This document shows, in pieces, positions 952 to 21,887 of a stretch of DNA of 64,000 nucleotides (positions are counted from its first letter, which is position 1; each line of letters starts with the position of its first letter). Origin of the DNA: Trypanosoma brucei (lineage: Eukaryota); the NCBI GenBank assembly GCA_000002445.1, contig CH464491.1, positions 3,712,001 to 3,776,000 of the forward strand, in the 5' to 3' direction. The position numbers were made by a program, and so were the translations under genes. The notes under the pieces are model-generated. The model saw only the letters and a list, made by a program, of their open reading frames with translations. It was not told the origin of the DNA and ran no database searches.

Positions 952-2502
952 ATGGACAGCATCACTGCAAACGATTACGATACGGAGTCAATGAAAGGTT
1001 TGTACAATGTCACACTCGAGGTTACAAAGTCCCCCTCCGGGGTCCATAGTGACAACAATGGTGACGCCGATGAGGCAGAAACCAATAAAGGCTACAAAAA
1101 TGTCAATCCAGATTGTGTGAATGCATTAGCCGCCAATAACTCTCGCAAGCAGGAGGAGAAGTACCTCGCGATGTTTAACGATTTTAATTCACACAATCTA
1201 CTCGATGTCCCAGATTCTGCGAGTCCGCCAAGATATCAACCAACTCTCTCAGGTGTGGATTACACCTTTTCCTACGTGGGGTCATCCCCCTTCGCCTCTG
1301 TTGTGCAAACAAACGATGCAGATGGTACCCCGGAAGGAAGAATGGAGCCGCTTTCAGACGCGTACCCTTCTGCTAACGGAAACGCACATCAGTCGTCGGC
1401 AAATGAACCGTCAAACAATGCGCCCTGCGTTTACGCCTCCATTGAAACATCTCCACTGCAAGGCCGTCGTCTTAATTTTCGAGCGTTTCTCACGAAGAAA
1501 ACCGTCCCCACTTCGATTATGAAAGAGGGCCAGGCTGGAGTGTTTGTTGGGCAGCTTCCTTCCACTTACACGGAGGAGGATACTGCTGCGTTGCTACGGG
1601 CGATTGGTGACGACGCGGGTGTACCAGTTCACGTACGAGACGTGAAGAGTCACAACCAAAGCCGTACATGCGCCTTCGTAACAGTCAATCAAGGGGCTCT
1701 GCAGGTGCTACTTGGCTATTCGAAGCGTGTTTTGTGTGATTCCGTTTGCGTATGGGTTGTAGAACCTGAGAAGGCACAGTATCTGAAGGACTTTGTAGAT
1801 GGATTGGTGCGGGAGCGATTGCGTGGCGTCCCGAAGGCAGCACTTGTGTTGGAACAACTCACACCGCAGTATGTAAGAGGGCAGGCTAGTGGCGGAAAGG
1901 AGTGGAAAGGTGCAAGTCCCCATGGAAGAGATGTTATGGGTCCTGTGGATGGTTTCTTTATGGCAATGCCCACTATGATAACTTCCACCGCTCCTCCACC
2001 ACCGCCGCCCAATGGCTCCGAAGGCCAAGTTGTCGCAGGCACTCATATGCCGATGAGTGTTTTGATGCCTTCGTGGGGAGCCGTCCAGCAAACGGCGGGA
2101 AGACGACCCACCGCTGCTCCTAACGGGTCGCAGGTGGTGGGTGCATTTCCTGGTGCTAATATTTATGGTAATCCAGGTGCTTGCTTTATTGCGGTACCTC
2201 CACCAGGCCCTGTTGCGGCTCGTTCACAGCAAGTGAATCTTTGCGTGATGGCCCCGGGTACGGGCGCTATGCAACCGGTGCCATATGTAACAAATTATGC
2301 CGGTGGAAATATGTACGCCCAAGCCGCCACTGCTGGTAGTGCCCCTGCTACGGTAACTATGCAACAGGCGGGTACGAGTGCATCACCCGTGCAAGTTGGA
2401 ATGGGTGGTTTCGGCCAGCAGGTTGCAGGTGGCTCTACCGTATATTTGCAATCCGTCCCACCTTATGCGTTACATCAGGTATTGCAGCAGCCGCAACAAT
2501 AG
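952..2502 (+). CDS. RNA-binding protein with a single RRM-like domain and a Q/G/A/P-rich low-complexity C-terminal half
   Basis: ATG at 952 lies downstream of a polyY tract (~740-760) with AG. The ORF is 516 aa. The central region carries RNP2-like VFVGQL and RNP1-like RTCAFVTV in an RRM-like arrangement. The C-terminus is rich in PPPPPP, GA and Q repeats. Confidence 0.7.
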   Translation: MDSITANDYDTESMKGLYNVTLEVTKSPSGVHSDNNGDADEAETNKGYKNVNPDCVNALAANNSRKQEEKYLAMFNDFNSHNLLDVPDSASPPRYQPTLSGVDYTFSYVGSSPFASVVQTNDADGTPEGRMEPLSDAYPSANGNAHQSSANEPSNNAPCVYASIETSPLQGRRLNFRAFLTKKTVPTSIMKEGQAGVFVGQLPSTYTEEDTAALLRAIGDDAGVPVHVRDVKSHNQSRTCAFVTVNQGALQVLLGYSKRVLCDSVCVWVVEPEKAQYLKDFVDGLVRERLRGVPKAALVLEQLTPQYVRGQASGGKEWKGASPHGRDVMGPVDGFFMAMPTMITSTAPPPPPPNGSEGQVVAGTHMPMSVLMPSWGAVQQTAGRRPTAAPNGSQVVGAFPGANIYGNPGACFIAVPPPGPVAARSQQVNLCVMAPGTGAMQPVPYVTNYAGGNMYAQAATAGSAPATVTMQQAGTSASPVQVGMGGFGQQVAGGSTVYLQSVPPYALHQVLQQPQQ

Positions 2503-4284
2503 GGGGAAAGTGTGCGTGTGAGTAAAAACCTGCCCTTCGTCCTTTCGACTCATGTTTGCGTATATAAATATATATATATATATTTATTTTTATATGTGTG
2601 TGTGTTTGCGACATTTGATGGTGGAAACTATTTTGACACGAAACGCTTTTCTTTTCTTGACTGTATATTTACGTGATCGTACACCACTTCTTGTGCTTTT
2701 GTTTTTGTTTTTCTTGTTATTTATGATTCGAACAGTATTTGGGAAAGTTTGTTGGTTTGTTTGTTTTTTGTCGATATTGCTTTTTGGGAGTATTTTTGTT
2801 TTTTTTTTGTAGAAGATGATACTAATGCTAAACACAAGGGATATTTGTAAATACAGCAAAGATATGAAGTCGAAACAATAACAAAGAAAAAAAGCTTTAA
2901 AAAAAAATCACTCTACCAGCGTGAGCATCTTACAGAGTTTGGAGCAGTCGTAAATTTCCTCTTTTATTTGGTTGATCAAATCATTTGTCCTTTTTTTTTC
3001 TTTGTATCACTTCTATTTTTTCTTTATTTCTCGTTGAAAGAGGACAGAGACGAGAGGAATTCGCTGCTCTAATGATGTTGGGTGACTCAAAGGAATTGTG
3101 ATTTCTTTTTTTTTTTCCTTTTTTCCTTTTTTTTTCTTCGTTACCTTATTTGAATGGGAAAGGGAGGGAAAGGATGAGCGTTTGAAATGAAGGAGAGTTG
3201 AGTCTGACTCCCCCATTCCTTCAAAATATTATTTAAAAAAAATGACAAATAATATTTAATAACTAATATACGATAAAGTGAAGAAAAAAATGGGGATAAT
3301 TTTTTTTTTTATTTAAAACAAAGTCAAGAAAGAAAAAAAAGAAGGAAAGAAAATATCGACAATAGTGAACACGCTGCCTGTCGATTTTTTTTTTCTTTCC
3401 TTCTTTTTTTTCTTTTCTTTCATTTTCCTATTTTCTTGTGTGGGATTTGTGACGGTGGGGACATCACCCCAACTATGGGAACCGTGGGATATAATTTGGG
3501 AAGTGAAATAAATAAATAAATGGAAAAACTCATCGCACTGTTGTGGATAAAAACAATACCAATGGAGTGAATGAGTAAATTGAAAAAAAAATCAGATTTA
3601 AATAAATAAACAAAGGAATGGGGGAAAATGAAATTAAAATAAGGGAAAAAACAAAAATCATCCCGACAGCGCTTGAGTGGGTGAAGACGAAGTTAAAGCA
3701 TAATTAATGGGAGAAGGGAAGAGGGAAAAAATCAATGGCGTACGGAATATATAAATAAATTTAATATGTAAGTTGTAAGATGATATATAAATAAACAAAT
3801 ATATATATATATTAACACATACAAAAAAGGGCAAACGTAAAGTGAGGGGTATGTGTATGTTTTGTATACGTGGAGTGCGGTAGCTTTGGAATGAACGAGA
3901 GGGAAAAGGAAAACAAGAAGCGAGTCGGTGGGTGTACACAACAACAATATAAAAGAGAAATAATAATAATAATAATAATAATATATATATTTGTATAAAT
4001 ATGATAGAAAGTGTGATGAAAGGGAAGTGGTGCTGGTGCTTATTCGTTTAGGTTTTTCTTTTCTCTAAAAGTTTTCCACTTGTTTGGTTTTGTAAACTCA
4101 ATGATGCACATAATTGAAGTGTGACAACAGTTTTGAGCCGGTTATCTTTTTTTTTTGTTTTGCACGCTAGTGGAGGAAAAGAAATTGAGGACAAGAATAT
4201 GAAAGTTTCACACAAATACACAAATAAATAGTTAAAGCGCGCACATTTACAAAAAAATATGAGAGAAGGAAGCCCTGTCCTCAA

Positions 4285-4545
4285 TTGTTATCTTTATTAT
4301 TATTGTTATTATTATTTTTTTCCCCCTTAGCGTTGCTTTCTCATGTCTTCTCTTTTTTTCTTTTTTACTCTTTTTACTTTTTTTTACTTTTTTTTTTAAA
4401 AAAATATTTTACTTCTTCATTGTATTTGCCTCTGTTCGTTCACACCTTTCTTTTACTTTTTTTTTTCTCCCCGTTCGTGTTTTTTTTTTTGACTGCTTAC
4501 GCTTTCCTTTGTTTTTGTTTTTTGTTATATTATTTTGGTTGAACG
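4285..4545 (+). repeat. ~260-nt pyrimidine-rich (T>>C) tract with embedded (TTA)n/(TTG)n
   Basis: Direct reading: tctttattattattgttattattatttttttccccc...ttttgttttttgttatattattttgg, almost free of purines. Confidence 0.8.
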
Positions 4546-5260
4546 TATAACTTCTTCGCGTTGTCGTATACCATATGACCAGAAGAAAGGAGAATTAAAG
4601 GAAAAAAGAAAAAGAAAAAGAAAACAAAAATAAAAGAAAAGAAAGGACGCTTTCATTTTTTTTTTCCCCCTTTCCTTTTCTTTTGCAATCCCTTTTTTCT
4701 TTTCTTTTCTCTTTCCTTTTTTTTCTTTGCGTGTGTTTTTTTTTTTTTACATTTCCCTCACATTTTAAGAGATGAGAGAAGGAACGAGTTAGTGATGTAA
4801 TATGAAAAAAGAGGAAAAAAGAAAACAATATTGACGAGAGGATATATATATATATATGCTTTGAATGAAAAAAAAAATAAAGTAATGATTAAAAAATCAC
4901 TGATTTTATTATTACTATTATTATTACTGTTATTATTATTATTACTCATATCAGCTTACTCATAGTTGTCGTTGACTGTGTTTTGTTTCTTATTATTTTT
5001 ATTTCCGTGCTTCTTTTCGGTTTATTTCCGTTTGGTACACTTTTGGACCAATGGAAGAAAAAAAAAAAAAGAAAATAAATGAAACGAAAAGAGAGAATTT
5101 CTCACTCTTTGTTTATTTTACTTTCCTTACTTTTTCTCTTTTTCTTTTTTTTTCTCAAATTTTTTTGTTAAAATTCTTTTCTTTCTGTCGTTGTGTTCCC
5201 ATGAAACCGTGTTGGTAACACTGACAAAGAAAGAAAGGGGATTATTTTATATTTACCAGG

Positions 5261-5525
5261 GAGAAAAAGAAAAAAAAAAGGTAAATAACAATGAAGCAAC
5301 AGATGAAAACAGAAGCAACAAAATATAGATAAAAAGAAGGAAAAAAGAAAAAGAAAAAAAGGAGAAGAAAAAAAAAAGAGAAAGAACTTTTAGGACAAAA
5401 CATGAAACAAAGCAAAAAAAAAAGAAAAAATGAAAAAAAAAAGAACAAACACACACTAAAAACACGAAAGAAAGGAAAAGGAAAAGGAAAAGAAAAAGAA
5501 AAAATGAAAAAAAAAAGAAAAACAC
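5261..5525 (+). repeat. ~265-nt near-pure polypurine (A>>G) tract
   Basis: Direct reading: gagaaaaagaaaaaaaaaag...gaaaggaaaaggaaaaggaaaagaaaaag...aaaaaaaaagaaaaac, with only scattered C/T. Confidence 0.85.
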
Positions 5526-6082
5526 GTTTGTATTTAATAATGGGGAAATGGAGTCCCTTTCTTTTCATTTCATTTCTTTCCTTCTTTATTCTCTCTCACA
5601 TAGATGGACAGTACGAGATATGCATTCACAGCAAACCAAAAAAATAAATAAATAAATAAAACAACCACTAATGATAATAATAACAGCGACAGCTAAATAT
5701 ATTAGTTTATGTTGCTTTTTTTCTTTTTTCTTTTTTCTTTTTTGTTTTTAACACTTTCACTCACTCTTTCACTTTTCCTCTTGTGTTATATATTTTTACA
5801 TTTTTATATTTTGAAATTTTTTTTTTTAAAAAATGCGCGGGCCCCCCCTTTTATTAAAGTTCCACCCCCCATTTCCCTTTCCACTGGCCTTCTTTTTTTT
5901 TTTTTATCTTTTTTTTTTAAAGGAGGAAAAAAAAGCAACAACAGCAACGACAAAAAGAGAGAAGTGAAGGAATGAAAATGAAAATGAAATAAATGGAGGT
6001 GCGTGTGTTGGGGGTTTGGGGGAGGGAAAATGAAATTTCAGTTTTTGGGCCCGTGCTTCACCTCAAACAAAAATAAAAAATA

Positions 6083-6135
6083 AAAAAGAATAATAATAAT
6101 AATAACAACAACAACTATTATTATTACTGTTAAAA
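6083..6135. repeat. Compound trinucleotide repeat (AAT)5(AAC)4 followed by (TTA)n, with inverted-repeat character
   Basis: Direct reading: aataataataataataacaacaacaactattattattactgtt. (AAT)n and (TTA)n are reverse complements on the same strand, so a hairpin or cruciform could form. Confidence 0.7.
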
Positions 6136-9100
6136 AAAAGGAGATTTTTTTTCTTTTTTGGAGAGATGGAAGGAAGGGAAAATATTTTTGTGTTTGATGT
6201 TTGTGGGTGTGTGCGTTTTGATGTTCTTATGTCGTTTTTTTTGTTTTTTTGTTTTATTTTGTTCCCCTTTTGTATACTTATTTATGTAATGGAAGTGGAG
6301 AGGAAAAGAATGAGGAGAGAGGTGAATAAAATAAAGATAATAAAAAAAATAAAAGTAATAACACAACGTTATATCAAATGCAATGGAAGAGAGAAACAAG
6401 AGGAAGGGGGAAAAAATGAAAAAAAAAAAGGAAACACACATTTTTTGAACATGCACTTGAACGCTTGAATGAATAAGCGGATGTATGAATACAAATTAAA
6501 GAAAAAAAACAGGTGGAGTATATGAAAAATATGAATGGAGAAAATGAAAGACATGTTGAATTCGTTGAATTGCATTTGGTTGAAATGAAATGAAAAGAGA
6601 AGAAAAGAAAAGATGTACGTATGAATGAATGGATGATTGAAAGCATTACATTGACGAAAGAAAGAAAAGAGAGAAAAGTATACGAGAAAAAACACACATA
6701 CATACACATGAGTACATATATATATTTTTATACATTAGTATATGTTTATATAAATGTGTATGTATCAAACAAACAAACAAAAGAAAGTAAATATGTGATG
6801 GAGAGGCAGAACAAATTGAAGGAAATATTGCGAATGTTTCAGCAGAGAATAAAAACTGGAAAACAAAAAGAAAAAGGAAAAAGGAAAAAGAAAGAAAGAG
6901 AGGGAACGGAACAGCAATAGCACCCATACACACATACACAAACAGAAAAAAAAAAAAGAACAAAAGAAAAACAAAGGCAGAAACAAGAGCGATTAACAGA
7001 AACATTTTTTTTTAAAAAAAAGAGAAAGAAAGAAAGAAGGAAAGAGAAAGAAAATTTAAGTTGAAATTTTTATTTCTTTTCAACTTAAAACGTTTGTGGT
7101 GACGGCTGTGAAGGAAAGTAATAATAATGAGATGGATGATGGAGGGGAGCCCAACGTGGAGATGAAAAGAGCGTTTTATTTTGTTTTAATTTTTCCTTGA
7201 ACACTGAAGGGGGAGGGAAGCTTCTTTTTTTTTTTTCACTTAAAAAAAAAAAATTAAAACTCTGCGAGAGCAGAGAAGAGGGGAGGTGTGGAGATCTTCT
7301 TTTTTTTCTTTTTATCTTTAAATAAGTATCAATTAGATAATGGAGGGACGAGTTTATTAATATAAATTCTGTAGAAGGATACAGAACGACAAACTAATTG
7401 AAATATGAAAGGAAAAAAAAATGAAAATAATAACAATAATAATAATATTAAGGTAGGAGAAAGTCAGTTATTTACAAATTAATCAAACGTCTCACATGCA
7501 CCTCACACATTGAAAGGAAGGAAAGTAAATAGATCAATTAATTAATTAATTCAAAGGCCGATGGAAGTGAAAGGAGTGAAAGAAAAAGAAAAATGAAATA
7601 AAATAACAAAGACAGAAAAAAGAAAAAGACCAAACAAAAGAAGTGGTGTTGCGTATATTTGTACCGAATGGGAAGCCAATGGCGCAAGGCGGTGAGTTGA
7701 AGGGGACTTTTTTTTTTTGTGGAAGTTCCACCTTTTGCTCTTGCTTATTTTTTTTTTTTAAAAAAGAATTTAAATGCTTTTATTTTTCTTTTTTCTTTTT
7801 CTTCTTCTTTTTCGTTTTGTCACGCTGATATTATCAACTTCACCGTCCGTTTCGCTATTTTTGTTTTGTCTTCCTTCACTTCCTTTCCGTCAAAACGTTA
7901 AGCGGCAAAGCGAAAACAAAAAAAAGGTGTGGGGATGGGAGTGGGAAAAAAAAAATGGAAAATTTTCGTGAGAGTTTTTTTTTTTGTGGGAGAATTATAA
8001 TATTTGGTGGAAATTTTCTTTTTTCTTTTTGTTTTTTTTTAATTTTGTAAGTTGAACGAAACAAAATATATATATTTCTATGGATGAAAATGCGCATACA
8101 AAAGTGCATCGTAATTTTGAAAATATGAGGGATAATAAAAAAGGATTAAAAAAAAAAGAGAAGAGAAGCGTAGGGAATAGCTACTTTTCTTTTCCTTTTT
8201 TATTTTATTTTTCGTTGTAACATTAAACTATTTGAAGAAACTAAAGCGATGGGAGGGGAATAAATAATAATAATAATAATGATAAGAGAGAAAGAGATAT
8301 GGAGGAATAGATAAAAGATAAATTTTGCATTTTATGCGTATGTGTGAAGGAGATGGGAGAGGTGTGAAATATAAATTTATAAATAAAGGGAAATGGACCA
8401 AAAGGAGAGAGAGGGGTTGGAACAGAGGAGGAGGAGGAGGAGGAAAAAAAAAAGAAAGACAGGAAGAATAAAAATACAATTAAGAGGAAAACCTGAAGGA
8501 TAGCAAAAAATATATCAACAAAGAAACAAAAAAAAACAAAAAAAATAAAATGCTTGGTTGCATGACATAATATGAACATGCAATACTTTGATGGATTTTT
8601 CTTTTTCTTTTTTTTTTCTTTGGAGGGAGAGGTGTATGGGAGTGGGGTTTGCCTATCTTTTTGTTTAGTTTTGTACGCCATTCCTTTTTATTTTTATTTT
8701 GTTATTTACTTATATTCATTTATATTGTTGTATTTTTCCATTTGTACGCCATATGCACGTGTGAGATACGCGCTCACATTTTTGGCTCCCACTTGTTAAT
8801 TTCGTTCTTGTTTTTTTTTGTTTGTGTGTGTGGCTCCTTTTCCGCCCTCTTTTCTTTTCTTTCCCTTTTTTTTTGTTTTTTGCATTTGTATTTGCATTTG
8901 TGTGACTCATGCTGCTGCTTTGAATATCACATTTTTTTTTTTGTGAATCTGTAGAGTCGAAGACGGTGAGATGATGATATCAAAGAAAAAAAAAGAAAAG
9001 GGAAAACAAAAAAAATGTTAATGAAAAAAATGTATTGAAAAAAAAAGAGAAATACAAAAAAGGCACAAATGGAAATTAAGTCACGGAGGAAGTGGCTGTG

Positions 9101-11801
9101 TTAAGTTTTGTTTTCCTTTTGGCTCTTATAAATATATGTTTGCATTATATTGTGCCTTTTTTGTATTTCTTTTTTTTTTTTGTTAGGGAACTGCTTTTTA
9201 TTTTCCTTATTTTGGAGAGTCTCTGGAAAGAAAAAAAAACAATCGAAATAGGTGAATAGCGGAAATCGACAGTGCATGAAAAAAGAAAAAATGAAAAAAA
9301 AAGGAAAATGAGATTCATTTGAGGAAATATTTCGAAAAGAAAAGATTTGGTACATTACGGCTTCTCATTTGTGTTATGTTTTGAAGTTGATGAAAGCACA
9401 GACATGTAAGTGTGTGCTTGAAGATGTATATATTTATATATTTATATATGAATGGAGGATTTTTTTTTTCCAAGAGAAAAATCATTATTGTGAAGGTCAC
9501 GCACCGCTTCCTTTTCTTGTATATATTTGTATTGAAGAAAAAGAAAATGGAAATGGAAATCCATACGGTTGCTTATAATATAAATATGGACGACAGGACA
9601 GAAGATATAACATTGATATGAAGGAGGGAGAAAGAGAAAAAGAAAAAAAGAAAGAGAAAGGAATGTGATATTATTTTATCATATGGTACACAATGGTGAA
9701 ATGCATTGTCGTCCGCTTCTTCTTTCTTTCTTTTTTTTAAAAAAAAACTGTTTGTTTGATTTCTAATTTTATTCCTTAATGTGAAGCGATGCCACAGGCC
9801 TCGTTTTTTTCTTTTTCTTTTTCTCCTTGTTTTTTCGTGCTTTTTAACTTTCGCTACTCTTTCATTGCTTCTGTTGCTGCTGTCGTCAATATCATACTCG
9901 CTTTTTTTTTTCAAATTAATTCTCTTCCGCTACGGTGGGGCGGGCGGTGCCGCGTATCCCCTTCAACTTTCCAACATTTTAAGCGGTTCCTTCAAAATAT
10001 ATTTTTAAAAAATGAAAAAAATGAAAAAAAAATCAAGAGAAAACAGAAATGGAAATGTGAGAGAAGGGGGAGGGGAAAAAAAAAAAGAAGAAAAGGCACC
10101 ACCACGCTTTTGGATATCCGCACATGACTGATGTGCGTTTCTTTTTTTTTTTTTGCTGTGATAGGTTTATTATTATTATTAATATTATTAATATTACCAT
10201 CTTTTTTTTTTTTTAAAGAAAAAACTTTTTCGCTCTTCGCTCCTTTGAATAATATGCTAGCGGGAAGCGAAATATGTCCATTGTTCCTTTTGTTTCTTGC
10301 TTCTGTACGTGTTTTCTTTCCCCCCTCTTTTTTATTGCTTTGCTTCAGTAGGAAAATTAGTGGAGGTTGAATATATATTTCAGTTCGGAAGAAGAGGAGG
10401 AAATAAAATATGAAATGAAATAAAAAAAAATGAAATGAAAATTAAATTAAATTTGAGCAGAGAGAGGCTCCAAGGGAAGTAAATAAAATTAAGAAAACAA
10501 CAACAACAACAAAGAATGAATGATTTAATTAATTAACATAAATGAATAGGAGAGGAGTCAGGTGAGAAGATGAGAAGGAAGGGTAAAAGATTTGAATAAA
10601 TCGGAGAGATTTATCCGTTTGGTTGTTTTTGGAGAAGCGAAACTTTAAACTCTTTTCTTTCCTGATTTGTTTTTTTCTCCTGTACATTGTTTTCTATATA
10701 TATATAAATATATATATATGTATTCTTTATGTATGTATGCATTTATGTATTTGCTTCATCTTCTGCAGGCCCATCCATCCATTCATCCATCCTAAAATGA
10801 AAGTAATATATAAATATTGCAAACAACAAAAGGAAAATAATTTTATATAATTTTTTTTTTTCGTGTGGGGGTGTATGCAGATGAGATTTTATATTGCGTT
10901 TTGGTGCTCAATCAACACCATCACAGCTGGTGGAGAGTTTTTTTGTTAGAAGAAAAAAAAAGAAAGCAAAAAAGAGAAGAAAAGGATAATAATAAAAAAA
11001 AAGAGTGTTTTGGGGGAAATGGAGAGAATTAAAAAATAAGAAGAAATAATACCAGTGAGTTGCATGGGATTGTGGTACATAAATTATTCCGTAGCGATAT
11101 TTCTTCTTTTTTTTCTTTTTTACATTTTAATTGAAGGGCTGCCGCACAGACGCCTTCCTTTTATGCCTTTGGACTACAATAATTTATGGAGTTTCACTTT
11201 ACTTTTTTCTTTTGGGTTTTTTTGTTTTGTTTTCGGTGGAAACAATCCGTTGTTATAATTATAAATAAGTGAGTGTGAACAGGAGGTGTTATTTTATTAA
11301 TTTTCTCATTACTGTTGTTGTAAACGTTTATTACTGTTTTCTGTTTTGCATCGCTTGGGTGCTTGTGTGTGGTTTATTTGTATTTGTGTCGGAAGCATAT
11401 AAATATAAGTTTTTTTTTAAAAAAAAGAATAAATTTATTTGTATTTTGTTACTGTTTTTTTTTTCCCCTTTGCTTCCGCTGTTGTTGTTATTGCTGTTGT
11501 TCGGTTTTACATCCCTATGGCACGACGTTAAGCAAAATTTTTATTTTTCGATTCAAACGATTCTTCAGACGATTTCTTCGTATGCTTCTTCCATTTTCCC
11601 TAATCGCTTTTTCATGTCTGTTTTTGTTCGTTTTTTTTTTTGTACTTCACTGATTGCTCACTACTTCCGCTTCCCTCTTCCCTCTTTTCTCTTCTCCATT
11701 ACTTTTTATTTTTATTATTTTATTGTTATTATCAATATTATTATTATTATTACTGCTCGCATATTGCAGGGGTTTGAGCGAGGAGAAAAGGAGGAAAATA
11801 G

Positions 11802-11860
11802 TATATATATATATATATATATATAATTTATATAATATATATAATATATTTATATATTTT
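11802..11860. repeat. (AT)n / (TATAA)-type dinucleotide microsatellite
   Basis: Direct reading: gtatatatatatatatatatatataatttatataatatatataatatatttatatatt. Confidence 0.85.
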
Positions 11861-12702
11861 TCAGAGTGGTTGTGCACTTTAGGGACATCGTCTCGTTTTC
11901 GTATCTCCTCCCCACACACAAAAAGAAAAATTATGCAAATTTACGTCGCTGCTGTTAACTTCCTTTTGTTGTTTTTTTTTCTTATATTCATTCCTTATTT
12001 CATTTAAATTATATTGTAACCGTCTTACATCATTATTAGTGTCGTCATTACTATTATTATTATTATTACCGTTGAGTTGTTGTTGTTGTTGTTGTTGTTC
12101 TTTGTGTGTTTATTTATCTATGAAATGTTACTGTTACTATTACCTGATGTTCGTTGATGCCGTCTCTGTTTTTTTTCTTCTGTTTCTTATGTTTTATTTT
12201 CTTCTTTTTTTCCCCCTTTTTTTTTCCTCCTCCCCGCCATTACCCGTTGATTTGTTATTTCCGGCTCCTCCAACCTGCCGTCAACAACTATTTCTCTCTC
12301 TTTTTTCTCTCTCTCTTTTTTTTTGATTTATTATTTCGTTCACTGCCATCTTTTCTTTACCTTTTTAGTTTTTTTTTTGTTTTCCATTCCGTTACTTTGT
12401 GTATTTGATGCCGCTGCCGCTTTTGGAGGAAGGACAAATAACCCAAGTGGTGTGATGATTATCATCACAAAAAGTAATAGTAATATCAATATTTGTTTTT
12501 TTGTTGTTATTATTAATAATTAAGAGAAAAAAGTTATCATTTTTTTTTCTTGGTTTTTGATATTGAGTGGTATGGGAAAGCTGAATATAGAAATATATAT
12601 CTCGAAAGCGAAGAGTCGAAACGGTACATGAAACTTAAGATCATTTTCTTCTTTTTTTTAATTTGTTTTTTACTTTTTTCCTTCTTCTTTCACATATACA
12701 CA

Positions 12703-12708
12703 CATATA

Positions 12709-12739
<31 letters not shown>

Positions 12740-12740
12740 T
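12703..12740. repeat. (AT)n microsatellite flanked by (CA) units
   Basis: Direct reading: cacatatatatatatatatatatatacatatatatatatt. Confidence 0.85.
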
Positions 12741-15700
12741 GTGTAAGTGTATTTTTATGTATGTATGTGTGTAACCCTTCTATAAGGGCTCGGAGGAAAA
12801 AAAAGTAAAAGATAAAATAAAATAAAATGAAAAGAAATGCAATGGAATGGAATGAAATGAAATGGAAAGAAGTAAATTAAATGAGTGGAGGAAAATTTAT
12901 AAAGTTGATTACTTTGGTTTTTTTATATTTATTTATCGTTTGGTACGTGTGCGTGCATGCGTGTGAGGTGTGCTGTCCCAGAACATATCATATCATATTA
13001 TATTATAATATAATAAAATATATCTTTGCGTATCTTTTTTTTTTTTTGCACACAGGTATATATAAATATATAAATAAATAATAAATAAATAATAATAATA
13101 ATATATATATATATTTGGCATTTTCCCTGAAGGAAATGCTTTTATTATGTCAGAAGGAAGGGGGAAAACAAAAAAAAAATAATTTCATATGGACAACAAC
13201 AACAGCAACAAAACTTTTCTTTTAAAATGTCTGCTGAAAGCGAGGTGTTTGAATGTTTTTTTGTTTTTTCTTTAATTTTTACCTTCTTTCCGTTTCTTTT
13301 TATTCAAAGGGTTCCTCTTCATATACGGACGTAATATTATATATTATATCAAAATATTAACATGTTGTCCGGACCCTTGTGCGAGTGTGTTTTATTCATT
13401 TATTTTGTTTTATTTTGTTTTTAAAAATATATAATTCATGCATGGTGGCAGTTCCACCACGCTGAGCGATATTGGACAAACAAACATCGAAAGTGAAAAA
13501 TATTAATAAAAATAGTAATAATAATGATAATAGTGGTGATGAAGGAAATAAGAACAAAAAAAAGGTAAATAAGTGGAAAGTAAGAAGAAAAAGAAGTTGC
13601 AACTCAGAAAAATTATTAGAAATTTGAAAAAAAAATAAAGGAAGGTAAAGCAGCTGAACTTCCGTGATCCTTCCGCTGGATCATTTTTTTTTTTTAATCC
13701 TTCTTTTCTTTTCTTTTGTGCTTGCGCTTGCTTCCCTTTCTTTTCTCTGTTTCCCCCTTATTTTTGTTAAAATTTGTGTTAGCCACGGACCACGTCAGGG
13801 AATATCACAAAAAGAGAAAACAAAACAAAAAAATGAAATGAAATGATATGAAGTAAAAAATAAATACAGAAATAAATATAGTTAAACCCAAACATATTCA
13901 TATGCCTACAGCCTACTGTCAGGCGGGTCTGAAAGGAAAATGAGAAATGAATGTTTTCACTTTAAATTCTAATATTTACTGCACATTTTCTTTTTTGTCT
14001 GTCCTTTTTTTTCTTTATCCCCCTCTTCTCCTCTACCCTTCTTAAAATTCATTTTCCCCCGTGCACTTATTTGGCAAATATTACCATTACCATCACCATT
14101 ACAACTTCCACCTCTTCCTTTTTGCATCATTTGTTCCCACTTTTTTTCCCCCTCTTTTCTATTTTTCGTGTATTTGCCTTTCCCTTTGTCATTACTCTTC
14201 TTTTTTTCTTACTTTTTCTTTTTTTACTTTTTTTCCTTAATATTAAATATCATTTCTTATGCGCACAACCATTTCTTCGTGCTTCTTTTTTTTTTTGTTC
14301 CCCCATTTCCCCCTCCTTTTCCGCCTAAATATGCATTTACTTCGTGTTCCGCTGATGTATTTACTTTTTGTCTTAAGGTGAGACATGAGAGGACGTGAGA
14401 TAAAATGAAAAGGGGACGAAAAATACTGAAGGAATTTTATCGAATGATCGCCGATTATTATTACTATTATTACTACTACTATTATTATTATTATTACTAC
14501 TGTTTTTGTTATTTTTCATGTTGGCGCCGTCGTTTCGTCTTGGTTTCTTCACAGTGCATTTTTATTTTTGTCTCTTTGTTGTTTGGGTCGTTTTGCTCTT
14601 TTTTTTTTCTCTTTTTTTTTTTAAAAAAAAGGGGGGGAGGAGCAACCACTTCGGAATACCCGCGTATTGTTTTTTTTTCATTTAATCAGGAAGCGATTTT
14701 AAGGGAAAAGAATAGCGGAGTGAGGGGGAAAGAAAGCAAAAAAAAAAAGAACAAAAAAAGGAGGAAGAAAGAAAGTCAGCATAAGGTGAAGAAATGGGAG
14801 AGAAATGTAGTAAATTTTTTTTTAAAAAAAGAAAAGGTGTGCGCATAGGAAGTAATACGAGGGTGGAGGGAGGACCGAGTTTTTACTTACTTTTTTTTTT
14901 TTTACTTGTTGTTGTCGCTTACATGTGTTTCAGCAAAATAAATGTGTGGGGCAATGTATTTGCCATGTTTGGTGTTGTTTTCTTTTTTAATGGTTCGTGT
15001 TGTATTGTGTGAGTTCCTTTTTCTGTTTCGGATGTTGTTACGCTGATGGCTAGTTTTGTTGTTACACTGGCACTGAATAGCTCGCTATGTTATAACACTT
15101 ACATATCAATCAACATTTCCTTTATCTTACGTTGTTATATGGACATTAATTTTTGTAAGAGTTTTTTGTTGTAATCCCCCCCCTATTTCCTACATATTAT
15201 TATACAAGAGGCTTCCCTTCCTTTGCCACTGTTTTCTTTTCTTTTCTTTCTTCTTCTTCATGGTCTCGTCTGGATGACTTTCCATTTTGTTTGTTTTTCA
15301 TGTGTCTTGTGTGTTTCCTGCACGTCTACTTGTTAACATTATTCAGATATTGTTATTGTCATTATCATCACTTTCTTTCCTTTTCTTTTCCTCTTTTTTT
15401 AAAAAAATCTCTCTGACTGTTGGATTTTGTCCTCGTCGACTCACAGTGCTGACAAGAAAGTAAAAAAAAAGGAAAAAAAACATATATGCGCGTATATGCA
15501 TGTAAAGGTTGGATTTCTCCTGTACTTTCATTTATTCATGGATAATATGGATAATGTGGATAAATGGTTCTTGTTGATTTATTAATTCTACGTTTTTATC
15601 CTTACTTTTATCATTTTCTTCCCCCTCTCTTTCTCTTCCTCTCTGTGTCTGTTTATGTATCATTTTCAATAAAGATTTTGCGGCCTAGTCGAACTACCTT

Positions 15701-15993
15701 AAATTTGATCCTCATATCACCCGTTTCTATTCTCATTGTTATTGTTATCATTTTGAATGTTTTAAATTTGCGTGCTGCATTATTATTATTATTATTATTT
15801 GAATCGCAGCGAGTGAGTAATTCATTGAACTTAATCGAGGTATTTTAGCAAGGAAGGAAGGGGGAAAAGCAAAAAAAAAAACAAAAGAAGAAAACTACAT
15901 AAATTAACCGACCTACTGGAGATCGCAAAAAGGGACTTCACTTTGTTTTGTTTTCACTCTCCAGAAAGCAAAACATAACCAAAGTGGTGGTTT

Positions 15994-16013
15994 AATATTT
16001 TTTTTCTTTCAAG
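15994..16013 (+). promoter_or_regulatory. Polypyrimidine tract plus AG, the putative trans-splice acceptor for the downstream UEV/CUE gene
   Basis: taatattttttttctttcAAGg lies ~115 nt upstream of the first ATG (16130). This matches the kinetoplastid polyY-AG signal architecture. Confidence 0.5.
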
Positions 16014-16129
16014 GATATACACAAAAATAAGCCAAATTAGTGGAGGCGCTACAGTTAAGTTTTAGGGCCCAGTCTATACATATATATTTCTCTCTAGGTA
16101 CAGTTTCTCCTTCTGTTTCTTCTGAGAAA

Positions 16130-17494
16130 ATGAATGATAGGGAGTTGCGGGCTTACACAAAACTCGATGTCCTCAAGAGGCACTATAGCGCACTAGCGGC
16201 GGAAGCACTGCACGACTACATCAACGACTTTATGCCATACACAGAAAATTTCAAAAACATTTCATGTCACTTCTGCAACAATGACAAACAACTTCTTTTA
16301 ACTTTGGATTGTCCGATCTATGTGATGCCGCCAGGTGTAAATGCCGCTGCTGCACCCCGTCAGGGTTTGGTGCATCCGCTGCGTGTTGAAGTTGTTTTTT
16401 TGGCCAACTTCCCAAACTCTGCTCCCACCGTTAAACTCCTTCCGAATACGTTTCGTTGCGGCAATTTAACCGAATGGCGTGTGCGTCCGGCTTCTAGCAT
16501 CATGGATGAAGATGGTGCCATTCACTTGGAGAAGTTGGCGCTTCTTGAACAGGCTGTGGTCCCGTATTCTCTTTTAGAAATACTTGTGGCACTTACTGAG
16601 CAGTTCGAAGCGGAATTCCCGCTAACTCCATCAGAGAGGGAACCCATCGGACAAAACCCCCCCATAGCCACTGCCACGCCACCCGTTTCCTCGATTGTAA
16701 ATTCTGTTGTTAATAGTACTTTTTGTCCCACAGACGGTTCGGCTCCACCCAACGTTATGCCTGTGCCTGAAATGCCGACAAGTGACCCATCTGTTGTTGG
16801 CCCACATAACCAACTTATTCAAGGGGCGTGCGATGCAGTCATGATTCATTTGCTCTTCAAGGCAGATGCTTATTTGGATACGCGAGCTAAGGCTTTGGAA
16901 TACCTAAAAACGTTAGACAAGGCATCAAATGAACTGCGCAGTGCACTTGCAACACTTGAGAAGAATAAGGAAGAGCTACTGAAGTTCTCTCCCGCCCCCG
17001 GCAGAGTTGAAGACCTCACCACCACCCTGGAGCAAGTCGCGAATTCTATGGAAACACACTCCGATTGTATCGTACCAGCGGATGAGGTGCACGCTCGGGC
17101 GTTAGAGTTGTTAGGGGACATTCACTCCCTGGACGATGTGTTGGAGTTGTTGGAGCGGTCTCTACGGCATGGGCAAATAACGTGCGAGGAATACGTTCGT
17201 CGTGTTTCTGATGTTGGTCGGCAGCAATTTGAAGCTCGGTTTCTCTTTGACCGTTTAACGGCTGCGGTCCGTGGTACCCAAAGATGTGGTACGCCGCTTC
17301 CTTCTGATGTCGTGCCGACGGCAAATGCACGAGAAGAGCCATCCGCAACTCAACCGACAACACTGGCCGAGGTGATTAAACAGCTGCATGAGGAGTTTCC
17401 TGATGTTGAATTGGATGTTGTTAAAGCGGTGCTGGAGGTGACGGAGATGAACCTTTCTGAGACCCGCGTACAGCTTCATGCCATTATGTCGTAG
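16130..17494 (+). CDS. Protein with an N-terminal UEV (inactive E2 variant)-like domain, a central coiled coil and a C-terminal CUE-like ubiquitin-binding helix bundle; candidate ESCRT-I Vps23/TSG101-like
   Basis: The ORF track starts at GTG 16040; the first in-frame ATG is 16130 (MNDRELRAY...). The N-terminus has a UBC/UEV-like pattern: HPLRVEVVFLANFPNSAPTVKLLPNTFRCG ... DGAIHLEKLALLEQ. The C-terminus EVIKQLHEEFPDVELDVVKAVLEVTEMNLSETRVQL aligns with the CUE consensus (xxIKxLxxMFPxxxxxVIxxVLExxxxNxxxxxxxLL). Confidence 0.8.
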   Translation: MNDRELRAYTKLDVLKRHYSALAAEALHDYINDFMPYTENFKNISCHFCNNDKQLLLTLDCPIYVMPPGVNAAAAPRQGLVHPLRVEVVFLANFPNSAPTVKLLPNTFRCGNLTEWRVRPASSIMDEDGAIHLEKLALLEQAVVPYSLLEILVALTEQFEAEFPLTPSEREPIGQNPPIATATPPVSSIVNSVVNSTFCPTDGSAPPNVMPVPEMPTSDPSVVGPHNQLIQGACDAVMIHLLFKADAYLDTRAKALEYLKTLDKASNELRSALATLEKNKEELLKFSPAPGRVEDLTTTLEQVANSMETHSDCIVPADEVHARALELLGDIHSLDDVLELLERSLRHGQITCEEYVRRVSDVGRQQFEARFLFDRLTAAVRGTQRCGTPLPSDVVPTANAREEPSATQPTTLAEVIKQLHEEFPDVELDVVKAVLEVTEMNLSETRVQLHAIMS

Positions 17495-17646
17495 TGGAGA
17501 AGCAACTCTATTGGGATATGCGCGAACGTGTTGTGAGAAGTGGAATTGGTTGGTATGTTACGTACAATAGCGCTGCTGCACTCCCTACTTGTGTTGTAAC
17601 ATTTGGAGTGTTTGTATAAATTCGAGTGGTCAGTGTTTGTTTGTGC

Positions 17647-17668
17647 GTGTGTGTGTGTGTGTGTGTGT
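17647..17668 (+). repeat. (GT)11 microsatellite in the 3' flank of the UEV/CUE gene
   Basis: Direct reading: gcgtgtgtgtgtgtgtgtgtgtgttgagc. Confidence 0.9.
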
Positions 17669-18178
17669 TGAGCGCTTTTCCTTTTTATAGACGCCCGCGC
17701 CAACGGGGTCGCACGATAGGTGCGACTTATTAGCAGGAATTGGGAAGTAATAGCGATAGTAAACTACTGTCGATTTTGTTTTTAGTGATGCAGAGGTGGG
17801 CTGTTGGTTCCGTTTGCGTATTTAAAAAAAAAATTGTTATTCTGTGTAGTCGGACGGCGGGCTGTAACTCTCGTTTTTTTTTCTATGTCGGCTGCCTCCC
17901 GGCTACGTTATTTATTTGCTTGAGTGGGATATAGCTTGGCCGATGATTACTCAACTGTGATTAAAGTCCTTGACACCAGTTTAAATATTCAGTATTTCTT
18001 TTTCCCCCTTTTTTGTAGCTGCGCTGCTGCCTCGACAAGTTCAGTTTGAATACGTTGTTGTTGGAGACGAGGAAAAGATTGATTTTCTTCTCTCTTTTGG
18101 GCTTGTGGCCCTTAACCTCTTTTTGTACCCCTTCGTATAAAGGGAAAGGGAACGTCTCCCACCTCTTAAGACGTGTAA

Positions 18179-18196
18179 TGTGTGTGTGTGTGTGTG
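18179..18196 (+). repeat. (TG)9 microsatellite upstream of the WD40 gene; source of a spurious GTG-initiated N-terminal extension in the ORF track
   Basis: Direct reading: aatgtgtgtgtgtgtgtgtgcaag. ORF 18182 starts at GTG inside this repeat. Confidence 0.9.
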
Positions 18197-18466
18197 CAAG
18201 GGGGCGGGACCATATGTTATGCACGAAAAAGTTGTACCGTAATGTACGAATGCGTGGTGAAACCTAAAGGCACTCTTCTCCCTTTTCTGCCCATATGTAG
18301 GCTTATTCGTACCGTTGTCTTTGTTCTCTTTGCAACCATTTGTTACATTGGAAATGTTAGGCAAGATAAGGTGCCACTTCTTCGACATCTCCTGAGTTAC
18401 CACTTCCCTTTGTCGCCGTCAGGTAGCTCCCGTTCCGCAGTACCGAACATATTTTACAAAGCAAAC

Positions 18467-21427
18467 ATGACTAGCTTAAATGGCAGCAAGAGTTCTGCAT
18501 ATGGAACGTTGAAGTTCACTAACCGGATGGGTACGCCATTGCCATCACCTTCAAAGAAGTTGAAGTCGGCACCGGCAGCTACCGGCGTCCCACCGCCACC
18601 CTTCACTTTAGCGGTTGGGAATCGGACCTCCTCCACCAGCCCGAGGACACCTGTTGCCATGGGTGAAACTTCTGTGGTTTCTTCACCCAATGGTTACAAC
18701 CCTCCTTTGCCCACAATTTCAGATGCAGCTTCGGGGCAGGGGACTGGAAACGGTACTACGAACATAGACGGTGTCGCATATAACCACAGTCGTCGCCGTA
18801 GGCAGCGTGGGCCAACCGGAAAAGCGAGTACGGATAACAATAACACCGCGGAGGTTGCCGCATCATCTCCGGGTGCTCAACCATCTTGTAATTCGTACGA
18901 TTCCGGTGGCACATATAATTCATTCTGGTCCCCCAGAGCAACAAATGCGGATGTTTTAGGATGGCCAAAAGTTGAGGATCACCAAGTTCCTACGGATGAT
19001 GTGCAATTAGGCTCTCACACACGTAGATATGGTGGTTCCCTCGGAGCTGTACCGCGACTATCTGTAAAGGTGCTGGGGATGAGCCCACTTCACGCCAATC
19101 TGCTTGTTGCTCGTCCGTTCGTACGCGTATGGCTGCTAGACGGCCACACCGGGAGAAATCTGATCAAAACAGAGTTTCTACGTTCGTCTTTTGGGGTAAC
19201 GCACCCCGTTGATCTCCGGTGTCGTCACACAAGAGCGCCGTGGTGGGGTGCCGAGCTCCTTTTCTGTGTGCATTCATCTCTCATTGAGGAACCATCAGTA
19301 GATCCACTCTTACTGATGGAGGTGCTTGAAAGTGGTGAGGAGGCGATTAACGGTGTTCCCGTTCCGCGAGACGGTTTCTACCCCGTGTGTTGGGGATTCC
19401 TGAAGCTGAGGAGTGCGAATGGAAGGATGAACATGGGGAAACGTTTGAATATTCAAATGTTTCCTTTCCCCGGGCGTGTATCTGTTCTCACAAGGCTAAT
19501 GCAACAGTTGCCATCCTTCTTGTTTCGCTCCCGAAGGGGGGTGGACGGGGATGATATTGGGCCTTTACACAGCCAAGAAACCACAGAATACGAGATGTGT
19601 TGTGCCTCCGATGCGGTTAAAGGCAACGGTAACACGTCCACGCCACCGGCAATCTTTTACACGTACAAGCGCGCCCAAAACCGTCAGGTTCCATACGCTG
19701 CAACTCTACTCATTTCGCTGAGATGGGAAGATGACATTTCATATGTCCCCAGTGAAGCGCATATATTACCGAGTGAGGAATGTTTTCTCGATCAAATGCC
19801 GGTTTCGCAGGACCACAAACCCAGGAGCACCGCAAGAAGTGCATACTCCGGACGTCCGTGGTCCACGGAAGACAAGAGTGCCAGATATGGTATAAATACC
19901 ACAGCTTTAGGGAGATCTTACTTGCGCAATGAGGATGAGCGAGTGGTGCCTCCACCATTGGTTGTACAGAGCACTCAGATTGTCGGAAAAGTTACTTGTA
20001 TAACATTTGCCGGCGTTGAATCTCTGATGGCACTCGGTGTAACGGACGGAGCTGATTACTTGATTCAGCTTCGCCATGCGCTGGTGTGTGGCGCTCCGAT
20101 TTTTGGTGTTTGCCGTGGGCATGCTGGTCACATACATAGTGTTACATTTCGAAGGGATAGCCAACTGTTGCTATCTAGTTCATCAGACAAAACTGTGAGG
20201 GTGTGGCGGTTGGATAATTTTCCTTCCGCCACAATTTCCTACCAGGTGATGATCGTTCCGTGCCTATGTACCCTGCCACATAGTTTCCCGCTGTATGATA
20301 GCGTGTTCTTTGAAAGCGTTATTGTAACTTGCGGTTTTGATCCGCGGCTCTTTGTATGGAACTACAAAGAATTCGACAACCAAGAAGTGGAAACCACGAT
20401 TGAAAGGGAGCAGTACAACCACAGCGGTGCGGCATGGCAACCCGGAAGAGTTGGCAGCGTACCATTGAGTAGTACAAACTTCAACATCACCACGGCGGGG
20501 TGTGGTGTGGGGCAGGTTGTGTATGAAACAACTGGCGATGATGGAGTAGTCGTTCGTGCGCTTTCCGCTTCGGATCGTGGACGTCTCTGGTCTGTCGATA
20601 CTTTAGGGAATGTGTTGATTTGGCATTCTGAGGATGGTGTCACGCTTGATGGCAGTACCCAATGGAGGATAAGGACGCGCTACCGTTTCAAATGCCCAGG
20701 GGCTACTAAAGTAGAAGTGCATGGAGATAGGGCTTTAGTGACGTGTGAGAAACATCCTGTGGCGTATTTGATTGATGTCATGAGCCACCAACTGCTACAC
20801 ACCATTTATATGCATCAGAAACCGTACATCCCTGTCGTTACACTCCTCCCTGATGGCGAGGCATTTGTGGCGTGTACCTGTGATGGGCGGTTGCTGTATT
20901 GGGAGTGCTTCTCCGGTACGCTATGTACTCCACTTAGTGGTTATGGTGCCATTCGCACTCACGGGAGTCCTCGCCGCATTGTGTGGTCGCCCAACCAACA
21001 GCTAGCAGCCGTTCTCGGTTCGTGGAACCACAGCAGTTTGGCAAGGAGGGAATCACATAGTTCGTTTATGGCACTTACAATCGTTGGTGCTCCAAGGGAA
21101 GAGGGAAATGTTTTACTGCGGACAGATGCTCATTCTGAAGCTAAGTTTCGCTCTCGCCTTATCAGTGGTGAGGCGAGTCCTCCTCTAACGAGAGTCAGCT
21201 CAGCAGGAACGTCGGAATCACCCCTATGGGCCACCTCTGGCCAACCCCAGTCCTCGCGACCCGTCGGGGCGATGCCTTCCTCCATTTTTGAGAGTAAAAG
21301 TTCTCGCATAGACAACATCGTTGCTGTATGGAAGCAACTTACATCCCGTCACCGATGTCGTAGGAGTGAGGAACCTCCGTTTACTGCCAACAGTGGTATC
21401 GACAAGTATGTTGCAGAAAATGTGTAA
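18467..21427 (+). CDS. Large WD40-repeat protein
   Basis: Start trimmed to ATG 18467 (MTSLNGSK...), downstream of polyY tract 18260-18340 plus AG. The repeat HIHSVTFRRDSQLLLSSSSDKTVRVWRL fits the WD40 consensus, and a GRLWSVDTLGNVLIWH-type repeat occurs further on. The N-terminal ~150 aa are S/T/P/G-rich. Confidence 0.75.
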   Translation: MTSLNGSKSSAYGTLKFTNRMGTPLPSPSKKLKSAPAATGVPPPPFTLAVGNRTSSTSPRTPVAMGETSVVSSPNGYNPPLPTISDAASGQGTGNGTTNIDGVAYNHSRRRRQRGPTGKASTDNNNTAEVAASSPGAQPSCNSYDSGGTYNSFWSPRATNADVLGWPKVEDHQVPTDDVQLGSHTRRYGGSLGAVPRLSVKVLGMSPLHANLLVARPFVRVWLLDGHTGRNLIKTEFLRSSFGVTHPVDLRCRHTRAPWWGAELLFCVHSSLIEEPSVDPLLLMEVLESGEEAINGVPVPRDGFYPVCWGFLKLRSANGRMNMGKRLNIQMFPFPGRVSVLTRLMQQLPSFLFRSRRGVDGDDIGPLHSQETTEYEMCCASDAVKGNGNTSTPPAIFYTYKRAQNRQVPYAATLLISLRWEDDISYVPSEAHILPSEECFLDQMPVSQDHKPRSTARSAYSGRPWSTEDKSARYGINTTALGRSYLRNEDERVVPPPLVVQSTQIVGKVTCITFAGVESLMALGVTDGADYLIQLRHALVCGAPIFGVCRGHAGHIHSVTFRRDSQLLLSSSSDKTVRVWRLDNFPSATISYQVMIVPCLCTLPHSFPLYDSVFFESVIVTCGFDPRLFVWNYKEFDNQEVETTIEREQYNHSGAAWQPGRVGSVPLSSTNFNITTAGCGVGQVVYETTGDDGVVVRALSASDRGRLWSVDTLGNVLIWHSEDGVTLDGSTQWRIRTRYRFKCPGATKVEVHGDRALVTCEKHPVAYLIDVMSHQLLHTIYMHQKPYIPVVTLLPDGEAFVACTCDGRLLYWECFSGTLCTPLSGYGAIRTHGSPRRIVWSPNQQLAAVLGSWNHSSLARRESHSSFMALTIVGAPREEGNVLLRTDAHSEAKFRSRLISGEASPPLTRVSSAGTSESPLWATSGQPQSSRPVGAMPSSIFESKSSRIDNIVAVWKQLTSRHRCRRSEEPPFTANSGIDKYVAENV

Positions 21428-21847: not shown

Positions 21848-21887
21848 CAACTTTTTCCCTCCCCCTTGTAATATCTTTCATTCGTAG
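21848..21887 (+). promoter_or_regulatory. Polypyrimidine tract plus AG, the putative trans-splice acceptor for the CCT epsilon gene
   Basis: caactttttccctcccccttgtaatatctttcattcgtAGag lies ~40 nt upstream of ATG 21928. Confidence 0.5.

Follow-up and report, generated by a model that had tools for sequence, protein, structure and literature searches.

A 13.6-kb AT-rich region downstream of REG9.1 in Trypanosoma brucei, probably for the most part a long, alternatively processed 3'-untranslated region

A 64,000-nucleotide stretch of DNA (hereafter the window), which exact protein matches for REG9.1, Vps23, TCP1-epsilon and a kinase place on chromosome 11 of Trypanosoma brucei brucei TREU927, contains an AT-rich, low-complexity region of 13,627 bp between the coding sequences of REG9.1 and VPS23. 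We propose that this region (hereafter the interval) is co-transcribed with the unit around it and is probably, for the most part, an alternatively processed 3'-untranslated region (3'-UTR) of REG9.1. As such, it is most likely an extreme case of a habit already known in trypanosomes and not a new kind of element. The upstream gene, Tb927.11.14220, encodes REG9.1, an RRM-type protein that represses the mRNAs for ESAG9 and others enriched in the stumpy stage; it was found in a screen for ESAG9 regulators, and its depletion leads to premature stumpy formation (PMC5380359, PMC5568443). Tethered REG9.1 represses a reporter (PMC4055773). The protein governs the time at which bloodstream trypanosomes turn into the transmissible stumpy form.

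A long gap and a long transcript

The REG9.1-VPS23 gap was compared with the 17 other same-strand gaps of the window. These measured 390–1,796 bp (median 806), and the REG9.1-VPS23 gap was 6.9 standard deviations away from them in log space. A preliminary reading made from the sequence alone, without database searches (the sequence-only reading), had pointed to a 13.6-kb gap amid a compact gene array, which was borne out; its range of 0.5–1.6 kb for the other gaps was slightly too narrow. Every gene of the window is on the + strand, including the protein genes that flank the interval. The interval thus lies directly 3' of the REG9.1 coding sequence (CDS), on the same strand and with no gene between, as a long 3'-UTR of an RNA-binding protein (RBP) gene should.

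Northern blots have described the REG9.1 transcript as 'larger than 6 kb'. The CDS contributes 1.55 kb and upstream sequence at most ca. 1.3 kb, and therefore at least ca. 3 kb of the interval are 3'-UTR. 3'-UTRs of several kb are common for T. brucei RBP and kinase mRNAs (Clayton review, PMC6597758). In early maps the median length of a 3'-UTR was 388 nt and the range reached ca. 6,000 nt, and UTR-internal transcripts were described in 2010 (PMC2936537). Procyclic forms have more REG9.1 protein, and bloodstream forms ca. 1.9-fold more of its mRNA, which is also 6.8-fold enriched in starvation granules (Table S1, PMC6597758). Both the stage discordance between protein and mRNA and the granule enrichment fit post-transcriptional control.

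Models of long non-coding RNAs (lncRNAs) have been reported close to the gene. According to PMC8240603, the sub-polysomal models KS17gene_4295a and KS17gene_4296a lie on the 5' side of REG9.1, whose CDS has positions 1–951 of the window upstream of it. In procyclic cells depleted of DRBD3, KS17gene_4296a was up 5.7-fold and REG9.1 mRNA 2-fold (supplement, PMC12592628), and in DRBD3-depleted bloodstream forms KS17gene_4297a falls (PMC12592628).

The gap is ancestral in position and the sequence is not shared

Orthologous loci were retrieved via REG9.1 homologues. In every species, genes for Tudor-SN, UBC, a calpain-like protein, REG9.1, Vps23 and a WD40 protein followed one another in the same order and on the same strand, and the REG9.1-to-Vps23 gap was the largest of the locus in each species examined. 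It measured 13.6 kb in T. b. brucei (16.9 times the median neighbouring gap), 9.3 kb as annotated in T. vivax, or ca. 8.9 kb after correction of a frameshift-truncated gene model (10.5 times), 5.4 kb in T. cruzi (6.6 times), 3.9 kb in T. melophagium (7.0 times), 3.7 kb in Leptomonas pyrrhocoris (1.5 times) and 1.3 kb in Angomonas deanei (3.5 times). Orthologous loci have thus kept a long region downstream of this RBP gene. Because the gap is the largest local one in every species examined, the oversized region 3' of REG9.1 is ancestral, reaching its greatest length in African trypanosomes. What is new here is this comparative pattern: all trypanosomatids examined have an oversized gap downstream of REG9.1, African trypanosomes the longest, and its sequence is not shared. 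An oversized gap in all of them without conserved sequence suggests selection on length or composition, not on motifs.

Two side observations were made at these loci. The T. vivax REG9.1 orthologue is annotated with 360 aa (10001–11520 of the retrieved locus L004), and homology to the T. brucei C-terminus runs on in another frame to ca. 11505, which suggests a frameshift, either in the assembly or in the gene model. T. melophagium has two tandem Vps23-core genes (15852–17159 and 17511–18905 of locus L006), and the other species have one.

Within the T. brucei group, T. b. gambiense DAL972 was collinear with the window and had a gap of 13,658 bp. T. b. equiperdum IVM-t1 was also collinear, with no Ns, and the distance from REG9.1 to TCP1-epsilon was 19,388 bp as against 19,425 bp here, a difference of 37 bp. 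Interval length is therefore constant within ca. 40 bp over three T. brucei-group assemblies despite many indels. Mis-assembly was rejected, since two independent assemblies are collinear with near-equal length; the sequence-only reading had asked that an assembly artefact be excluded, and the tract proved real in all three assemblies (TREU927, DAL972 and IVM-t1). Between T. b. brucei and T. b. gambiense, substitutions amounted to 1.27% in the interval, 0.96% in other intergenic DNA and 0.48% in CDSs, and gap bases per kb to 35 in the interval versus 9 in other intergenic DNA. The interval evolves by slippage while its total length holds stable. In draft genomes the tract is evidently hard to assemble: the short-read assembly of T. 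equiperdum OVI breaks inside it, with ca. 2.8 kb absent between two contigs, and the T. grayi contig, likewise from a short-read assembly, stops 2.3 kb past the REG9.1 orthologue.

Composition of the interval

GC content was 0.304 in the interval, 0.430 in the pooled other intergenic DNA and 0.504 in the CDSs of the same window. Homopolymer runs of at least 6 nt comprised a fraction of 0.119 of the bases, compared with 0.035 in other intergenic DNA, and 37% of the 100-nt windows of the interval had 70% or more purines or 70% or more pyrimidines, compared with ca. 4% elsewhere between genes. Polypyrimidine and polypurine bases were nearly balanced (fractions of 0.100 and 0.105). A scan for blocks of at least 60 nt returned 45 (24 purine and 21 pyrimidine) with sizes of 60–295 nt; the alternating homopurine and homopyrimidine blocks noticed earlier are thus present, and are smaller than the 100–500 nt then given. 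Tandem Repeats Finder (TRF) reported (AT)n, (TTA)n, (AAT)n and (AAATG)14 as well as degenerate A/G or T/C arrays, and (CAA)n and (GGA)n were seen by reading the sequence, so that the simple repeats claimed for the tract are confirmed. The further claim that the tract is unlike everything else in composition holds within the window and describes a T. brucei-specific feature: the gaps of T. cruzi, T. melophagium, T. vivax and Leptomonas have the composition of the other intergenic DNA of these species.

TRF found no fixed-unit satellite in the interval, the array with most copies having 29.5 of a 2-nt unit, and in a repeat-family search of the interval every 'family' was a low-complexity match. 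These results agree with the earlier judgement that a classical centromeric satellite is unlikely. A centromere or satellite was rejected as a candidate, the interval being no fixed-unit AT-rich array and having same-strand protein genes as flanks, with no retroelement or ribosomal RNA (rRNA) genes.

No gene in the interval

All open reading frames (ORFs) of at least 90 aa in the interval were F/L/K-rich junk, with no retroelement-type long ORF, and the longest had no match in Pfam. ARAGORN predicted no transfer RNA (tRNA) in the whole window. Rfam at gathering thresholds gave no match and no rRNA in the interval; at E ≤ 1 it gave chance microRNA-like matches on AT hairpins, far below gathering. 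When the 371 stop-to-stop peptides of the interval were compared by tblastn with the syntenic gaps of four species, only low-complexity noise was obtained. A missed conserved gene was rejected on the basis of this noise and of the lack of a Pfam match. The sequence-only reading had seen no credible ORF and no recognisable RNA gene, and had named missed conserved genes in the syntenic position of relatives as what could overturn it; the ORF, ARAGORN, Rfam and Pfam scans upheld the former, and nothing credible of the latter kind was found in the four species.

T. b. gambiense DAL972 carries four gene models (142, 110, 213 and 141 aa) in the equivalent interval, where TREU927 has none. None of the four had a Pfam match, and their appearance is that of spurious ORFs in DNA of low complexity.

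Processing signals, T/A junctions and hairpins

Polypyrimidine (polyY) tracts were defined as stretches of at least 15 nt with at least 60% U. The + strand of the interval carries 41 (3.0 per kb), compared with 0.81 per kb in ordinary intergenic DNA, or about one per gene. Low-complexity sequence with many internal polypyrimidine tracts, as in long 3'-UTRs of RBP mRNAs, is thus found in the interval. Close to the end of the interval, a U-rich tract, TATTTTTTTTCTTTC, is followed by AAG and is likely, from its sequence, to be the VPS23 splice signal. The mechanical ORF of Vps23 begins at GTG 16040 (484 aa) and is used by RNA-derived gene calls; as the Vps23 ORFs of the RNA-derived Logan collection start there, the 5' end of the mRNA lies upstream of 16040. 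The annotated start is ATG 16130, and the extra 30 codons are probably 5'-UTR.

Junctions in which a run of at least six T is followed directly by a run of at least six A occur nine times in the interval, with 1.5 expected; none of 3000 length permutations reached nine. No junction of the reverse order, A(n)T(n), was found. The whole window has 11 T/A junctions, and the two outside the interval are at 43486 and 46799. The former sits ca. 65 nt upstream of the start codon of XPO1, for which reason such junctions are perhaps splice-signal-like. They may be polypyrimidine-plus-spacer splice signals, or may reflect mutational bias.

Of local inverted repeats (24 nt or longer, separated by no more than 120 nt), the interval has 38 and the remaining 47.9 kb one. 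Two of them, near-perfect hairpins (Table 1), are both retained in T. b. gambiense; they may be scars of fold-back duplication or short elements of double-stranded RNA. RNA folding of 1.2-kb windows was better than that of dinucleotide shuffles (z from -0.7 to -9.4) and weak per nucleotide. Pairing of purine blocks with pyrimidine blocks explains the folding, which is thus no evidence of a functional structure. Enrichment of the RBP10 motif was likewise unsupported, with UAUUUUUU occurring four times on the sense strand and 12 times on the antisense strand of the interval.

A proposed mechanism

We suggest that the interval lies within a single same-strand RNA polymerase II (Pol II) polycistronic unit, is co-transcribed with it, and for the most part would belong to the REG9.1 3'-UTR. 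In trypanosomes, polyadenylation takes its position from the next trans-splicing signal that is used downstream. The full-length isoform would accordingly extend to an A-rich stretch a short way 5' of the VPS23 splice signal at ca. 16.0 kb, an end point that requires masking of the internal polyY tracts. Such masking could be exerted as it is by DRBD18 and DRBD3/PTB1 on other long 3'-UTRs. Where an internal tract was used instead, shorter REG9.1 mRNAs would result, together with spliced-leader-capped non-coding fragments of the kind annotated as lncRNAs. The long tail may keep the mRNA scarce and offer regulators many binding sites, which would allow post-transcriptional tuning of REG9.1, the gate of slender-to-stumpy and bloodstream-to-procyclic differentiation. 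As to its origin, the DNA may have grown through replication slippage and small fold-back duplications, with length or composition, and not sequence, probably under constraint.

A more far-reaching version of this mechanism, which we regard as improbable, would make the tract an active RNA locus. Regulated use of the ca. 41 internal signals, masked and unmasked by DRBD18, DRBD3 or similar proteins, would switch REG9.1 between long and short isoforms and release non-coding RNAs, some with hairpins of 30–40 bp, that would sponge RBPs with a preference for U-rich or purine-rich sequence or would feed RNA interference, and the threshold for the slender-to-stumpy transition would be set in this way.

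The closest known case is the 3'-UTR of RBP10 (Tb927.8.2780), which has 7.3–8.5 kb, is of low complexity and is rich in polypyrimidine tracts (PMC9380746). Depletion of DRBD18 shortens it and frees downstream non-coding fragments (PMC9380746). Similarly, DRBD3 masks cryptic splice sites, and 50–60% of the lncRNAs that it down-regulates are embedded in UTRs (PMC12592628). The interval and the RBP10 3'-UTR both lie downstream of a single-RRM differentiation regulator, on the same strand and within a polycistronic unit; both extend over several kb of low-complexity sequence with many internal polypyrimidine tracts, and both mRNAs smear or are heterogeneous on northern blots. Processing through polyY-binding proteins would be a further likeness, for REG9.1 by analogy. 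The two cases differ in that the 13.6-kb interval would be ca. 1.6–1.9 times longer, and in stage, RBP10 being bloodstream-specific and REG9.1 protein more abundant in procyclic forms. Continuity of the RBP10 3'-UTR, its regulatory fragments and its dependence on DRBD18 have been shown experimentally; for REG9.1, the counterpart is the transcript 'larger than 6 kb'. The mRNAs for ZC3H20, ZC3H21, ZC3H22 and other RBPs and kinases, with 3'-UTRs over 4 kb, provide a wider class of regulator mRNAs in which a long 3'-UTR carries many binding sites and holds abundance down (PMC6597758). Their 3'-UTRs are shorter and are regulated via specific RBP10 motifs, of which the REG9.1 interval has only the four sense copies of UAUUUUUU in 13.6 kb.

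A 3'-UTR that took up the whole 13.6 kb would rank with the longest of T. brucei, where early maps extended to ca. 6 kb and RBP10 reaches 7.3–8.5 kb. It would lend itself well to the study of how dozens of internal splicing signals are ignored and of the regulation of regulators. The comparative pattern is a small addition, as are the T(n)A(n) junctions and the hairpins; overall, the finding is not very surprising for a specialist and leaves the current picture of trypanosome gene expression unchanged.

Weighing the alternatives

The sequence-only reading had offered a long 3'-UTR of the RRM gene, a boundary between two Pol II units, and a non-coding RNA locus or structural AT island, and had made no choice between them. 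The long 3'-UTR was among the three and is the best supported, by the transcript of more than 6 kb, by the habit of RBP mRNAs and by the oversized syntenic gap. Several observations weigh against it. A transcript of more than 6 kb is also accounted for by a 3'-UTR of 3–5 kb, which would leave 8–10 kb unexplained. The enrichment of polyY tracts is not strand-specific (41 on the + strand, 32 on the - strand), giving little sense-strand signature, and a GC content of 0.30 is clearly unlike the ordinary UTR and intergenic DNA of the window (0.43). Between subspecies the interval diverges as much as other intergenic DNA or more, with no sequence constraint visible. In blastn comparisons with the gaps of T. 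vivax, T. cruzi, T. melophagium and Leptomonas, scores did not rise above those of a reversed-sequence control, with one exception: a purine-rich T. vivax match at a similar distance from the stop codon scored 69.7 bits, controls giving at most 50, and was treated as low-complexity similarity. With KS17gene_4295a, KS17gene_4296a and KS17gene_4297a modelled near REG9.1, at least one may lie inside the interval as a separate RNA. Finally, a search of a protein collection for RNA-seq-derived ORFs of the interval, with a concatenated query and ten exact look-ups, gave no match, a result that is uninformative.

Part of this evidence would suit an arrangement in which only the proximal few kb are REG9.1 3'-UTR and the rest gives rise to independent trans-spliced, polyadenylated lncRNAs, possibly with a function in differentiation. 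Many of the 41 sense polyY tracts are closely trailed by AG, the nine T/A junctions resemble the one in front of XPO1, the northern blots set nothing but a lower bound, the KS17gene models around REG9.1 respond to DRBD3 depletion, and UTR-internal non-coding transcripts are documented in T. brucei (PMC9380746, PMC10048164, PMC12592628, PMC2936537). Known UTR-embedded or UTR-adjacent lncRNAs, such as grumpy upstream of RBP7 and the KS17gene models, are spliced-leader-capped and polyadenylated and arise from polyY/AG signals beside differentiation regulators. REG9.1 shares with them the neighbouring models; it differs in that the signals of the interval are candidates and that no small nucleolar RNA-like or conserved structure was found there. 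Moreover, the two models whose position is described lie 5' of the gene, ca. 20% of annotated lncRNAs appear only as parts of UTRs in nanopore data (PMC10048164), and the interval has neither conserved sequence nor Rfam-like structure. We therefore consider independent lncRNAs unlikely to make up most of the interval, and, as lncRNAs annotated in T. brucei are in many cases pieces of long UTRs, such a reading overlaps with a long 3'-UTR and does not exclude it. A functionally neutral spacer, grown by runaway expansion of microsatellites and homopolymers and transcribed with the unit, with no regulatory role beyond its length, is also doubtful. It would account for the gap bases and the substitution level between subspecies, the lack of cross-species sequence conservation, the microsatellites and low-complexity 'families' throughout, and the concentration of fold-back repeats, which suggests a mutational origin; against it, an oversized gap at the same syntenic position in every species from Angomonas to T. 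brucei implies that something about a long region 3' of REG9.1 is maintained, and total length is held within ca. 40 bp among three assemblies despite many indels.

Explanations at the level of the chromosome fare less well than a transcribed 3'-UTR. Few T. brucei intergenic regions are transcription-unit boundaries, and it is very unlikely that the interval is a head-to-tail boundary at which one Pol II unit terminates after REG9.1 and another is initiated before VPS23 from a nucleosome-poor, AT-rich zone. T-run/A-run junctions and poly(dA:dT) tracts disfavour nucleosomes, and their presence, like the unusual composition and a size about that of a transcription start region, would suit a boundary. 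Initiation sites internal to same-strand clusters do exist in T. brucei (PMC2936537), and same-strand flanks with a wide gene-free stretch are shared with known head-to-tail sites. These, however, are defined by histone variants, histone modifications and base J, whereas the interval is known here from its sequence, in which nothing supports a boundary; no tRNA or other Pol III gene, often present at such sites, was found, and the REG9.1 mRNA enters the tract and reaches several kb into it. In addition, the oversized gap follows REG9.1 across genomes of very different composition, where it scales like a UTR and is of ordinary composition. Its ordinary composition there also speaks against an element acting at the DNA level, be it a centromere, an origin of replication or a structural AT island of another kind, which is scarcely credible although AT-richness, homopurine and homopyrimidine blocks and palindromic T(n)A(n) junctions could be read in that sense. 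The interval has the AT-richness and the several-kb size of T. brucei centromeric arrays without their fixed-length repeat unit, and it lies inside a co-directional cluster with no strand switch, retroelement or rRNA genes. Mapped T. brucei replication origins lie at transcription-unit boundaries.

Features and neighbouring genes

Coordinates of the features are collected in Table 1. Downstream of VPS23, the + strand encodes TCP1-epsilon, a Y_phosphatase2 protein, a kinase, Maf, a metallophosphatase, a WD40 protein, a HECT ligase and exportin-1.

Table 1. Position of the interval, its flanking genes and its sequence features (window coordinates unless a retrieved locus is named)
Feature	Position	Strand	Remarks
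AT-rich low-complexity intercoding region	2503..16129	+	13,627 bp; proposed REG9.1 3'-UTR (alternative lengths) plus VPS23 5' processing region
REG9.1 CDS	952..2502	+	516 aa; exact match to EAN80366.1/XP_829478.1/Q382B5
Vps23-core (ESCRT-I) CDS	16130..17494	+	3' neighbour; 454 aa; Pfam PF09454, E = 3e-16; exact match to EAN80367.1
Candidate VPS23 trans-splice signal	15996..16013	+	U-rich tract then AAG; predicted from sequence
Near-perfect hairpin	3326..3419	+	Stem ca. 38 bp; arms 25 nt, 100% complementary; -42.1 kcal/mol, z = -8.4
Near-perfect hairpin	9037..9181	+	31-nt arms, 81-nt loop, 97% complementary; -53.3 kcal/mol, z = -8.2
Largest purine (A/G) block	5238..5532	+	295 nt; TRF gives degenerate (AAAGAA)n-type arrays here
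Largest pyrimidine block	14078..14350	+	273 nt; block scan
T10A7 junction	4388..4404		
T11A6 junction	5817..5833		
T9A8 junction	7005..7021		
T12A6 junction	7748..7765		
T8A9 junction	9731..9747		
T9A8 junction	11410..11426		
T11A8 junction	14612..14630		
T9A7 junction	14815..14830		
T7A7 junction	15394..15407		
T. b. gambiense gene model	L002 13572-14000	-	Retrieved-locus coordinates
T. b. gambiense gene model	L002 14198-14530	-	Retrieved-locus coordinates
T. b. gambiense gene model	L002 20687-21328	+	Retrieved-locus coordinates
T. b. gambiense gene model	L003 7829-8254	+	Retrieved-locus coordinates

Pfam at E ≤ 0.01 gave no RRM in REG9.1; the literature places the RRM at aa 195–244. A list of yeast two-hybrid partners of RBP10 includes REG9.1 (S1 Table, PMC5568443).

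Three Logan contigs for TCP1-epsilon (L013–L015; ca. 21860–23750 of the window) are transcripts. In L014, the 3' part of the spliced leader is joined ca. 40 nt upstream of the TCP1-epsilon ATG, which maps the splice acceptor of that gene, and L015 ends in poly(A). These two contigs show that the Logan collection includes assemblies of T. brucei RNA-seq data.

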